Under the pieces are notes generated by a model, which worked only from the letters and a program-made list of their open reading frames with translations, was not told the origin of the DNA and did no database searches. A DNA stretch of 64,000 nt from Escherichia coli. Its GTDB lineage: Bacteria > Pseudomonadota > Gammaproteobacteria > Enterobacterales > Enterobacteriaceae. Below are positions 6,872-10,443 of the stretch, piece after piece. Both the position numbers and the translations under genes were made by a program. The stretch lies in NCBI RefSeq assembly GCF_003790525.1, contig NZ_CP033633.1; one strand, given 5' to 3'. The first letter of the stretch is position 1; the number at the start of each line of letters is the position of its first letter.

Positions 6872-8104
6872 ATGCCTCTTTTCTCCCTGCGCCCTGCGGC
6901 AACCCTCTGGCCTCCGGTGTTACTGGGAAGCCAGTTCGTTTTTAATATTGGCTTTTACGCGGTCGTACCTTTCCTCGCCCTCTTCCTGCGCGACGACATG
7001 CTGCTCTCAGGCGGACTTATCGGCCTGATCCTCGGGCTGCGTACCTTCTCCCAACAGGGGATGTTTATCCTCGGCGGGACGCTGGCCGACCGCTATGGCG
7101 CTAAGGCGATCATTCTCGCCGGCTGCGTCGTTCGCGTCGCCGGTTTTCTCCTGCTGGCGTGCGGGGCGTCGCTGTGGCCCATTATCCTTGGCGCCTGCCT
7201 GACCGGCGTCGGCGGCGCCCTGTTCTCCCCGTCGATAGAGGCCCTGCTGGCGCGGGCCGGTACCCACAGCCAGGCCAACGGGAAACGCAGCCGCGCCGAG
7301 TGGTTTGCGCTGTTTGCGGTATGCGGTGAACTGGGAGCGGTGATCGGCCCGGTGGCCGGAGGCGTGCTGAGCGGGATCGGCTTTCGACATATCGCCCTCG
7401 CCGGCGCGGGAATATTTCTTCTGGCGCTGGCGGTGCTCTTTTTCGGTCTGCCCGCCGACGGGCACACGACAACAACGCGCAGACGAGTCCCATGGTGGAC
7501 GCCTTTGCGCCAGCCGCGCTTTGTCGCGTTTATTCTCGCCTACAGCTCATGGCTGTTGAGCTACAACCAACTCTACCTCGCTCTGCCGGTGGAGATCCAA
7601 CGTTCCGGCGGCCGCGAGCAGGATCTGGCGCCGCTCTTTATGCTGGCCTCGCTGTTGATTATCACCCTCCAGCTCCCTCTCGCCCGCTTCGCCCGGCGAA
7701 TGGGCGCCGTGCGCATCCTGCCGGTGGGCTTTCTGCTGCTGTCGGCTTCCTTTGCCAGCGTGGCGTTATTCGCCGCCGCCCCACCCGCCGAAAGTTGGCT
7801 GCGGTTAATGCCGGCGGCTAGTTTTGTCACGCTGCTCACCCTCGGCCAGATGCTGTTAGTGCCCGCAGCCAAGGATCTGATCCCGCTGTTCGCCGAGGAG
7901 TCGACGCTGGGCGCCCACTACGGAGCGCTCGCCACCGCAGGAGGGTGCGCGGTGTTAGCCGGGAATTTACTGCTCGGTCATTTACTTGACCAGGCGCTCA
8001 TTCCGTCGCCGCAGGCGGTTTATCCCTGGCTTCTGCTGGCGCTGTTTCCGCTGTGCAGCGCCGTCGCCCTGCGGGCGATCTGTCGCCCGCTGGCGGCAAC
8101 ATGA
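6872..8104 (+). CDS. MFS-family transporter
   Basis: About 410 aa, highly hydrophobic; start chosen at the internal ATG 6872 rather than the ORF-track start 6782, which overlaps the ATPase gene. Confidence 0.65.
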   Translation: MPLFSLRPAATLWPPVLLGSQFVFNIGFYAVVPFLALFLRDDMLLSGGLIGLILGLRTFSQQGMFILGGTLADRYGAKAIILAGCVVRVAGFLLLACGASLWPIILGACLTGVGGALFSPSIEALLARAGTHSQANGKRSRAEWFALFAVCGELGAVIGPVAGGVLSGIGFRHIALAGAGIFLLALAVLFFGLPADGHTTTTRRRVPWWTPLRQPRFVAFILAYSSWLLSYNQLYLALPVEIQRSGGREQDLAPLFMLASLLIITLQLPLARFARRMGAVRILPVGFLLLSASFASVALFAAAPPAESWLRLMPAASFVTLLTLGQMLLVPAAKDLIPLFAEESTLGAHYGALATAGGCAVLAGNLLLGHLLDQALIPSPQAVYPWLLLALFPLCSAVALRAICRPLAAT

Positions 8105-8106
8105 CG

Positions 8107-8130
8107 CAGAGCGGGTAACAGCCCGCTCTG
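8107..8130. terminator. Hairpin downstream of the MFS gene
   Basis: CAGAGCGGG-TAACAG-CCCGCTCTG perfect 9-bp stem; no clear T-run. Confidence 0.35.
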
Positions 8131-8181
8131 GAAGTGAACAGCTGGTATCCATATTTTCAGCTAATCCTTTAACAAAGATCC

Positions 8182-8357
8182 TCAGCCCTGTTTAAACCCC
8201 GGCTTGCCGTTTTTGGCTCGCCATTCCTTCACTTCTTTTACGATACCTTCAGGACTGTCCTCACGGTCATCCCTTGGATAATAAATAAGATCAGAACCAT
8301 CAGGGTGTTCAGCTAATCGACGAAATTCATCCACTAATTTATCGTCATCAGCCTCAG
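8182..8357 (-). pseudogene. Colicin DNase-type immunity protein (Im-family) C-terminal fragment, truncated by IS1
   Basis: Minus-strand translation [57 protein letters not shown] matches the conserved C-terminus of E-group colicin immunity proteins; reading frame runs into the IS1 left end. Confidence 0.6.
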
Positions 8358-8412
8358 GGTGATGCTGCCAACTTACTGATTTAGTATATGATGGTGTTTT
8401 TGAGGTGCTCCA

Positions 8413-8688
8413 GTGGCTTCTGTTTCTATCAGCTGTCCCTCCTGTTCAGCTACTGACGGGGTGGTGCGTAACGGCAAAAGCACCGCCGGACATCAGCGCT
8501 ATCTCTGCTCTCACTGCCGTAAAACATGGCAACTGCAGTTCACTTACACCGCTTCTCAACCCGGTACGCACCAGAAAATCATTGATATGGCCATGAATGG
8601 CGTTGGATGCCGGGCAACAGCCCGCATTATGGGCGTTGGCCTCAACACGATTTTACGTCACTTAAAAAACTCAGGCCGCAGTCGGTAA
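8413..8688 (+). CDS. insA: IS1 InsA
   Basis: 91-aa zinc-finger/HTH protein, canonical IS1 InsA sequence. Confidence 0.9.
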
Positions 8689-9110
8689 CCTCGCGCATAC
8701 AGCCGGGCAGTGACGTCATCGTCTGTGCGGAAATGGACGAACAGTGGGGCTATGTCGGGGCTAAATCGCGCCAGCGCTGGCTGTTTTACGCGTATGACAG
8801 GCTCCGGAAGACGGTTGTTGCGCACGTATTCGGTGAACGCACGATGGCGACGCTGGGGCGTCTTATGAGCCTGCTGTCACCCTTTGACGTGGTGATATGG
8901 ATGACGGATGGCTGGCCGCTGTATGAATCCCGCCTGAAGGGAAAGCTGCACGTAATCAGCAAGCGATATACGCAGCGAATTGAGCGGCATAACCTGAATC
9001 TGAGGCAGCACCTGGCACGGCTGGGACGGAAGTCGCTGTCGTTCTCAAAATCGGTGGAGCTGCATGACAAAGTCATCGGGCATTATCTGAACATAAAACA
9101 CTATCAATAA
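8607..9110 (+). CDS. insB: IS1 InsB reading frame (InsAB' by frameshift)
   Basis: 167-aa canonical IS1 InsB. Confidence 0.9.
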
Positions 9111-9125
9111 GTTGGAGTCATTACC

Positions 9126-9320
9126 CGAACTAAAGAGGGGATGGCTGTTGCCCGTTCAAAGGGAAAATTGAAAGGAAAACAGCCTAAATTATCTGAAAAA
9201 CAACAAAAAGAACTATGCCGTATGCGTGATACTGGCCAGTACTCTATCAGCGATCTAGCGGAACTATTTACCGTCTCGCGTGCAACGGTTTATCGAACAC
9301 TTTCACGAGGACAAAAATGA
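9126..9320 (+). pseudogene. Serine recombinase C-terminal (HTH) fragment, truncated by IS1
   Basis: Frame open from the IS1 boundary; ...KEGMAVARSKGKLKGKQPKLSEKQQKEL...VSRATVYRTL resembles a resolvase C-terminus. Confidence 0.6.
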
Positions 9321-9579: not shown

Positions 9580-10443
9580 TTATTGTTCAGTTAACTTCAT
9601 TTCGACAAGTAAAGGTAAATGATCTGAGACAGATGCATATGGCTTACTTTCAGGGGTCGCTCTATCTGACGGTTTAGGAATATATACATCTTTAATGTCC
9701 CATTTTTGAGCATTTGATGTAAGTATATAATCAATTTTCCTGTCTGGATTCCATGATGGTGCCGTGTACTTCAATTCCTTATCAGTGTCATTGAACCATG
9801 CTGTTAAATCCAAGTACTCTGTTGATTGAGGTGGTAAATTAAGATCACCCACTATAATTGGAAGTGCATTTTTAAACTGCCAAGAAGAGAATTCTGTTTG
9901 AAGAGTTCTTACTTGCTCTGCTCGTAATGGCTGCGTAGTGAAGTCCAAATGAGTAGTTACTAACATAACAGGCGCAGGATAATTAGGGACATCAACTTCT
10001 ACAGCACAGGCCGCTCTTTGCTCCGCACCTTTGATGTTAGGTAGTTCCATCCTTTTACTCAATTTCAAATCATACTTAGACAGTACTGCTGTACCATATT
10101 CCCCACCATCATGATCTATAGCCTTGCAGAAGTAATAATTCATTCCCAACTTATTAGCTATATACTCTGCTTGATTGACTGGGTTAGAACCCTCTTTACT
10201 AAAGTTCTTACCAGAACGCCCAGTCATGTTATCAACTTCTTGCAGTCCAATAATATCAACATTCATTTTACGAATTGCTTCTACAATGGCATCAGTACTC
10301 CCCATTCTAGAGGCCATTATGTTATATGACCCAACACGAATACTATCGGTATCTGCTGGACCATCCATGAGGCGATCAGAAGCTAAAGTTGAAGAGGAAA
10401 GAACTATAAACCCTATAACCGCAGCAATGCTTGTTAATTTCAT
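9580..10443 (-). CDS. Secreted endonuclease/exonuclease/phosphatase (EEP, DNase I-like) family protein
   Basis: 287 aa, N-terminal signal peptide, EEP-like motifs (GLQEV near N-terminus, SDHLPL near C-terminus); low-GC gene between inverted IS1 copies. Confidence 0.6.
   Translation of the reverse strand: MKLTSIAAVIGFIVLSSSTLASDRLMDGPADTDSIRVGSYNIMASRMGSTDAIVEAIRKMNVDIIGLQEVDNMTGRSGKNFSKEGSNPVNQAEYIANKLGMNYYFCKAIDHDGGEYGTAVLSKYDLKLSKRMELPNIKGAEQRAACAVEVDVPNYPAPVMLVTTHLDFTTQPLRAEQVRTLQTEFSSWQFKNALPIIVGDLNLPPQSTEYLDLTAWFNDTDKELKYTAPSWNPDRKIDYILTSNAQKWDIKDVYIPKPSDRATPESKPYASVSDHLPLLVEMKLTEQ

Follow-up and report, generated by a model that had tools for sequence, protein, structure and literature searches.

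A minus-strand reading frame that runs into the left end of an IS1 element was found in the window (the whole 64,000-nt stretch of Escherichia coli DNA analysed here), and with high probability it is an inert pseudogene, what is left being the 3′ two-thirds of a gene for Im2-like immunity to an HNH DNase bacteriocin. Direct translation of the minus strand over 8182-8357 gave a 58-letter reading, and the peptide quoted in the original prediction was exactly this minus-strand translation. The fragment comprised 57 complete codons (8355-8185), corresponding to E29 to G85 of the 85-aa ancestral protein WP_000412701.1, followed by a stop codon at 8184-8182 and preceded by 2 nt (8356-8357) left over from codon 28. 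Since the span 8182-8357 is 176 nt and not a multiple of 3, a naive translation of these coordinates is out of frame. A Pfam search matched the peptide to PF01320 (Colicin_Pyocin) at E = 4.9e-26, with 91.1 bits (gathering cut-off, 21.2 bits) and a match covering positions 28-82 of the 82 in the model, while the best phmmer match in the PDB was to residues 30-86 of the colicin E2 immunity protein (Im2; E = 4e-30), and 28 solved immunity-protein sequences were matched at E ≤ 3e-14. As a sequence match, this is far beyond chance, and the membership in the DNase immunity family (Im2/Im7/Im8/Im9) that had been proposed earlier was borne out by the protein search. The toxin-binding motif of helix III (D-x-x-Y-Y-P) was present in the fragment as SDLIYYP, and a 31-member alignment revealed that Y54 and P55 were invariant and that D50, L51 and I52 were nearly invariant.

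An AF2 model of the ancestral protein (31 homologues, pLDDT 92.3) placed helices at residues 11-22, 29-43, 50-53 and 63-76. A full family member has about 85 residues folded into a four-helix bundle and a start codon of its own; the window holds residues 29-85 only, with helices II, III and IV kept and the ATG and helix I gone. Nor does a cognate gene for an HNH DNase toxin directly precede the fragment, the upstream position in the window being occupied by IS1. It is a piece of a PF01320-family gene and not a functional member of the family. The description of an orphan C-terminal fragment of 57 codons adjoining the left end of IS1 copy A was upheld by both translation and alignment.

The features of the region are listed in Table 1. 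The MFS transporter gene, which we take to be eitD from the iron-uptake cluster eitABCD, is convergent with the immunity fragment, and its presence ties the locus to a ColV-plasmid context. The short flank 3′ to the fragment was homologous to the spacers between immunity genes of a Salmonella bacteriocin locus: when the segment of a ColV plasmid (p1ColV5155, locus L001) was compared by blastn with the Salmonella loci L012 and L013, homology reached L001 5136-5158, equivalent to window positions 8135-8157. As the Salmonella homology continues beyond the immunity stop codon for about 25-47 bp, the bacteriocin-derived DNA is taken to end near window position 8135, and this boundary with the eit module is approximate. 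A perfect 9-bp inverted repeat, CAGAGCGGG-TAACAG-CCCGCTCTG, was also noticed at 8108-8131, just past the eitD stop codon and on the eit side of the junction; having no T-run after it, it was not flagged by the terminator scan.

Table 1. Coordinates, strand and evidence for the immunity-gene fragment and surrounding features in the window
Feature	Position	Strand	Evidence or remark
MFS transporter gene	6917..8104	+	ORF list; PGAP 'MDR family MFS transporter'
3′ flank, bacteriocin-derived segment (~47 bp)	8135..8181	-	blastn vs Salmonella loci L012/L013
DNase-bacteriocin immunity gene, 3′ fragment	8182..8357	-	Translation; Pfam PF01320; Im2 match; alignment to intact gene
IS1 copy A (IS1A type, 768 bp)	8358..9125	+	End sequences; copy comparison; PGAP name
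Resolvase gene, 3′ stump (HTH_7)	9126..9320	+	Pfam PF02796, E=2.2e-11; PGAP pseudogene 'missing N-terminus'
Endonuclease/exonuclease/phosphatase (EEP)-family gene	9580-10443	-	Between IS1 copies A and B
IS1 copy B	10610-11377	-	End sequences; copy comparison
IS1 copy C	20056-20823	+	End sequences; copy comparison
Colicin B-type gene, N-terminal part	20819-21730	-	Pfam Cloacin domain, E=4e-100; adjoins IS1 copy C

IS1 copy A starts at 8358 with GGTGATGCTGCC, the sequence from 8358 on (GGTGATGCTGCCAACTTACTG...) being the left end of a 768-bp IS1, and its left inverted repeat is the break point of the immunity gene. In pairwise alignment, homology to the intact gene of p1ColV5155 ran to window position 8357, and none was detected beyond. 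Both insA and insB frames were found in the list of open reading frames of the window, and PGAP, annotating an identical sequence, records an 'IS1-like element IS1A family transposase' and a programmed frameshift. All three IS1 copies are 768 bp long, copies B and C differing from the reference copy A by 4-5 mismatches. No 9-bp (or 8-bp) target-site duplication was detected at copy A, which is flanked by CAGCCTCAG on the left and CGAACTAAA on the right, and comparison of the flanks of all three copies revealed neither a 9-bp duplication nor a cross-match. The lack of a target duplication at copy A indicates a secondary rearrangement and not a simple insertion, and the same conclusion follows from the resolvase stump on its right side, which is unrelated to the immunity locus.

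A search for the lost 5′ portion of the immunity gene, as a 41-mer with up to 3 mismatches, gave no match in the window, which shows that no inversion occurred within the window. The reciprocal junction, consisting of the IS1 right end, the 9-bp duplication and the 5′ immunity part, was found in none of 5,426 complete E. coli genomes, indicating that the simple-insertion intermediate has not been sampled. In this lineage, the boundary with IS1 falls after the second base of codon 28, and 28 codons including the ATG, the toxin stump (see below) and the adjoining backbone have given way to IS1 and unrelated DNA. Most likely, IS1 would have inserted into codon 28, and IS1-mediated adjacent deletion or IS1-IS1 recombination would then have replaced the upstream side. 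The window allele is a third haplotype, having SNPs in common with both the intact type and a codon-14-truncated type of the gene; when we tried to choose between these two alleles as the target of IS1, the SNP pattern proved mixed.

Copies A and B are in inverted orientation and bracket 1,484 bp. The module made up of the resolvase stump and the EEP-family gene was also seen beside IS1 in further plasmids of E. coli and in one of Providencia, and part of it is present in Vibrio tapetis. The bracketing of a 1.5-kb segment by copies A and B, together with the absence of target duplications at any of the three IS1 copies, might suggest that the fragment arrived as passenger DNA in a composite IS1 element and was not truncated in place. 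However, the fragment lies outside the A-B bracket and is collinear with eitD and a 78-bp spacer, exactly as in ColV plasmids that have no IS1 at this point. This collinearity already refutes a passenger origin, to which we assign next to no probability, and truncation in place is retained in what follows.

Window positions 7000-8357 matched 227 PLSDB plasmids, 214 of them at ≥99% identity, and at least 80% of this segment was covered in 220 records; the matching plasmids were mostly conjugative E. coli plasmids from poultry and extraintestinal infections. In p1ColV5155 (NZ_CP005931.1), an intact 85-codon gene encoding WP_000412701.1 (L001 5183-5440, annotated as 'bacteriocin immunity protein') is located 78 bp from eitD, and is abutted through TAA-ATG by an HNH toxin stump (WP_000451769.1, starting at L001 5441) annotated as 'HNH endonuclease signature motif containing protein'. 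The stump represents the last 83 codons of a DNase domain, covering positions 45-124 of 124 in PF21431 and aligning to residues 52-133 of the ColE2 DNase. Upstream of about L001 5690 there is ordinary F-plasmid backbone DNA, present in more than 700 plasmids, and the junction between stump and backbone in p1ColV5155 is not an IS1 end; the bacteriocin-derived segment of L001 extends from about 5692 down to about 5136. No lysis gene was found after the immunity gene, the distance between the immunity and eitD stop codons being 78 bp.

The window copy and that of p1ColV5155 occupy the same locus at the same 78-bp distance from eitD, and share 99.2% nucleotide identity over the retained part, with all 57 residues identical. 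They differ in that the p1ColV5155 copy has 85 codons, the ATG and the toxin stump, whereas the window copy is without residues 1-28 and without the stump. About 69 PLSDB plasmids of the ColV/ColBM type keep the intact immunity gene together with the 83-codon toxin stump. As far as these comparisons go, the ancestral state in ColV/ColBM virulence plasmids is a relic of about 560 bp, composed of a toxin stump and an orphan immunity gene. Since the toxin had been lost earlier at a junction not made by IS1, only the last cut is attributable to IS1. The earlier proposal that at least two bacteriocin loci had been eroded by IS1 is supported in so far as an N-terminal stump of the colicin B-type gene adjoins IS1 copy C, and has to be narrowed for the immunity locus, where the toxin was already down to 83 codons at the F-backbone junction.

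Protein searches with the immunity protein returned its own 90% cluster and then dense relatives at ≤87% identity. A word-indexed protein search with the toxin stump gave fragments only, and full-length relatives were found via the neighbours of related immunity proteins (85-87% identical). Two of these were inspected in their contigs, one from an uncultured Cedecea sp. (GCA_947498825.1, L010) and one from Salmonella enterica (L012/L013), with immunity proteins 87% and 85% identical, respectively, and in both the immunity gene is located directly downstream of a full-length bacteriocin gene, the products being 596 aa and 919-962 aa, respectively, and carrying Pyocin_S and Col-Pyo_DNase domains. 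The Cedecea toxin was 83.1% and the Salmonella toxin 80.7% identical in its C-terminus to the ColV toxin stump, versus 58.0-60.5% identity between the stump and ColE2-type toxins. The DNase domain is thus not closest to those of ColE2/E7/E8/E9.

These data bear on whether a complete E-group colicin operon (toxin, immunity and lysis genes) once stood at this position and was destroyed by IS1 activity. Such a history would be in keeping with the fragment adjoining IS1, with Im2 being its best characterised relative, and with the truncation of the colicin B locus by IS1 copy C in a like manner. It is weakened by the approximately 69 plasmids with an intact immunity gene, in which the 83-codon stump ends at F-backbone DNA and not at IS1, the lysis gene is missing and only about 47 bp of bacteriocin-derived DNA follow the stop codon, as well as by the greater similarity of the stump to Pyocin_S-type toxins (81-83%) than to ColE2 (58-60%). 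E-group colicins are a class defined by the receptor-binding part of the toxin, and neither the window nor the related plasmids examined contain a receptor or translocation domain; with this part preserved in none of them, assignment to the E group is not possible. We therefore consider the former presence of such an operon unlikely. Nothing shows that an intact operon was ever at this position, and the inspection of related plasmids, which had been suggested as a way to find one, led to the 83-codon stump without a lysis gene. The term 'E-group colicin', as applied to this locus in the original prediction, is not established, and the relic of toxin stump and orphan immunity gene is taken as the starting point for the IS1 truncation.

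The junction between the truncated immunity gene and IS1 was 100% identical over a 300-bp window in 13 PLSDB plasmids, and the whole arrangement of imm′-IS1-res′-EEP-IS1 was present in 12 PLSDB plasmids. Over 353 bp, the junction was 99.2-100% identical in 20 records, representing 18 of 5,426 complete E. coli genomes; these 20 records were from chickens, chicken meat, black kites (Milvus migrans), humans and a food animal. An identical junction across records suggests a single event that has since spread, and the exact imm′-IS1 junction can serve as a lineage marker, of modest value, tracing that single rearrangement. Two of the 20 records were chromosomal (NZ_CP135671.1, 5194744-5195096; NZ_CM142764.1, 2074631-2074983), implying that the plasmid region was integrated into two E. 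coli chromosomes.

Other states of decay were encountered at the same locus. In a group of the pPA45B type, homology stops 42 nt short of the ATG (codon 14), and a 91-aa chimeric protein is annotated; the group numbers about 50 records as judged from the 95-99% identity band and not from a dedicated junction search, and the counts for decay states are approximate. In pHK01 (NC_019057.1, L004 2501-2844), ISEcp1-blaCTX-M-14 was found downstream of eitD. No immunity sequence was detected in pHK01, homology to the ColV segment ending exactly at the immunity stop codon, and the IncF state of the pHK01 type is another independent erosion of the immunity locus. Beside eitABCD, the gene has therefore been met in at least four states: 1) intact, 2) truncated at codon 14, 3) truncated by IS1 at codon 28, and 4) deleted with ISEcp1.

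Several observations suggest that the fragment has most likely lost its function. With the IS1 break, the N-terminus and its ATG are gone, as are the whole of helix I and any ribosome-binding site, and the remaining helices II-IV would carry the toxin-binding face; with helix I, the start codon and the upstream expression signals lost, no functional protein is expected. Scanning of 7900-9300 revealed no promoter-like site on the minus strand, and the sole terminator-like hairpin found in that scan lies inside IS1, upstream of the fragment. An outward-facing TTGGCA in the left end of IS1 can reportedly take part in a hybrid promoter, a lead said to go back to Prentki et al. in 1986. At the present junction, this candidate was rejected, as no acceptable -10 hexamer was found at a spacing of 16-18 nt and the minus-strand scan was empty. 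The reading frame of the fragment continues into IS1 as far as a stop at about 8448, with no ATG in that extension. The earlier statement that there is no start codon is correct for the native ATG, which is missing, but has to be qualified by an in-frame GTG at 8334-8332 (Val36), the first mechanical start; no Shine-Dalgarno motif was seen before this GTG by direct reading.

It was considered whether the stub is still functional, with a 50-57-residue peptide of helices II-IV being made from the GTG or by read-through from IS1 and conferring partial immunity. The frame open to about 8448 and the GTG would permit translation, the whole DNase-binding region (helices II-III), including the motif residues of helix III, is retained, and the 57 residues are those of the protein of the intact allele, the 2 nucleotide differences between the window fragment and that allele both being synonymous. 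Nevertheless, the minus strand showed no promoter-like site, a terminator-like hairpin is located upstream in IS1, the GTG has no Shine-Dalgarno motif, helix I of the four-helix bundle is entirely gone, and a mere two synonymous differences do not suffice as a sign of selection. Residual activity of this kind is very improbable, and we would give hardly any credence to the related idea that the stub might bind and blunt a DNase bacteriocin of the Cedecea/Salmonella type as a natural 'mini-immunity' protein. An inert pseudogene is the reading adopted here.

The identical fragment is already annotated by PGAP in NZ_CP100531.1 as a 174-bp pseudogene (NLZ08_RS24380, 'bacteriocin immunity protein; incomplete; missing N-terminus'), and the finding is therefore known as an annotation. 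The fragment is biologically ordinary, one more IS1-truncated pseudogene on a mosaic plasmid of poultry E. coli, and matters little in itself. For the eit-adjacent immunity gene, our literature searches returned no specific mention in a published description. In a 2025 survey of bacteriocins on E. coli plasmids (PMC12546727), only one DNase orphan immunity gene was counted, because genes had to exceed 99% identity to a known cognate immunity gene. The orphan immunity gene common in ColV plasmids was probably missed by that survey. The intact copy in sister plasmids may be an orphan DNase immunity gene that is widely maintained in ColV virulence plasmids and has been overlooked; being carried by dozens of these plasmids, it may deserve a functional test.

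Among known plasmids, pLH10-b-1-A (NZ_CP100531.1) shares with the window the extent of the fragment (174 bp), the IS1 junction, and the neighbours eitD, IS1A, the resolvase stump, the EEP-family gene and the second IS1. The 353-bp junction (window 8105-8457) was 100% identical, no difference was found at the fragment, and the window is largely collinear with this plasmid. Two differences from pLH10-b-1-A were noted elsewhere in the window: 1) about 8.5 kb is missing at window 12141-12274, between a LysR regulator gene and a cysteine hydrolase gene, where the BLAST blocks overlap by 134 bp, suggesting a deletion between short direct repeats, and 2) a block of 2.8 kb containing cmi, cma, cbi and the 3′ part of cba is missing beyond IS1 copy C.

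Im2 (PDB 2NO8, 3U43 and 2WPT) was 86% identical to the fragment and 85.5% identical to the full-length ancestor, with which it has in common the Pfam family, the predicted four-helix fold and an identical helix III motif, SDLIYYP. Of the eight substitutions that separate the fragment from Im2, five are located in helix II (E31A, N34D, R38D, E41R and T44A; Im2 positions). Helix II is the specificity helix of DNase immunity proteins, and these substitutions suggest that the ancestral immunity gene probably had a specificity other than E2. ColE2 itself is a small Col plasmid with a lysis gene about 60 bp after the immunity gene, whereas the window locus has neither feature, and blastn against ColE2 plasmids gave 76-77% identity only over the stretch between the HNH motif and the immunity stop codon.

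In Salmonella (L012 1111-7052; L013), three full PF01320 immunity genes and a partial one, a colicin-type lysis gene and a pesticin-domain gene come after the gene for the Pyocin_S/DNase bacteriocin of 919-962 aa. The first of these immunity genes is the same as that of the ColV plasmids over residues 1-39 and then diverges, suggesting mosaic recombination. Neither the immunity-gene array nor the lysis gene of the Salmonella locus is preserved in the window, nor is there any counterpart of the full-length toxins of Cedecea and Salmonella. The Cedecea locus and the ColV segment share 82% DNA identity over 508 bp and exactly the same stop/start abutment, ...AATAAGTAAATG... (TAA-ATG). On the grounds of sequence comparison, the relic derives from the clade of Pyocin_S-domain DNase bacteriocins seen in Cedecea and Salmonella, and not from colicin E2 itself.
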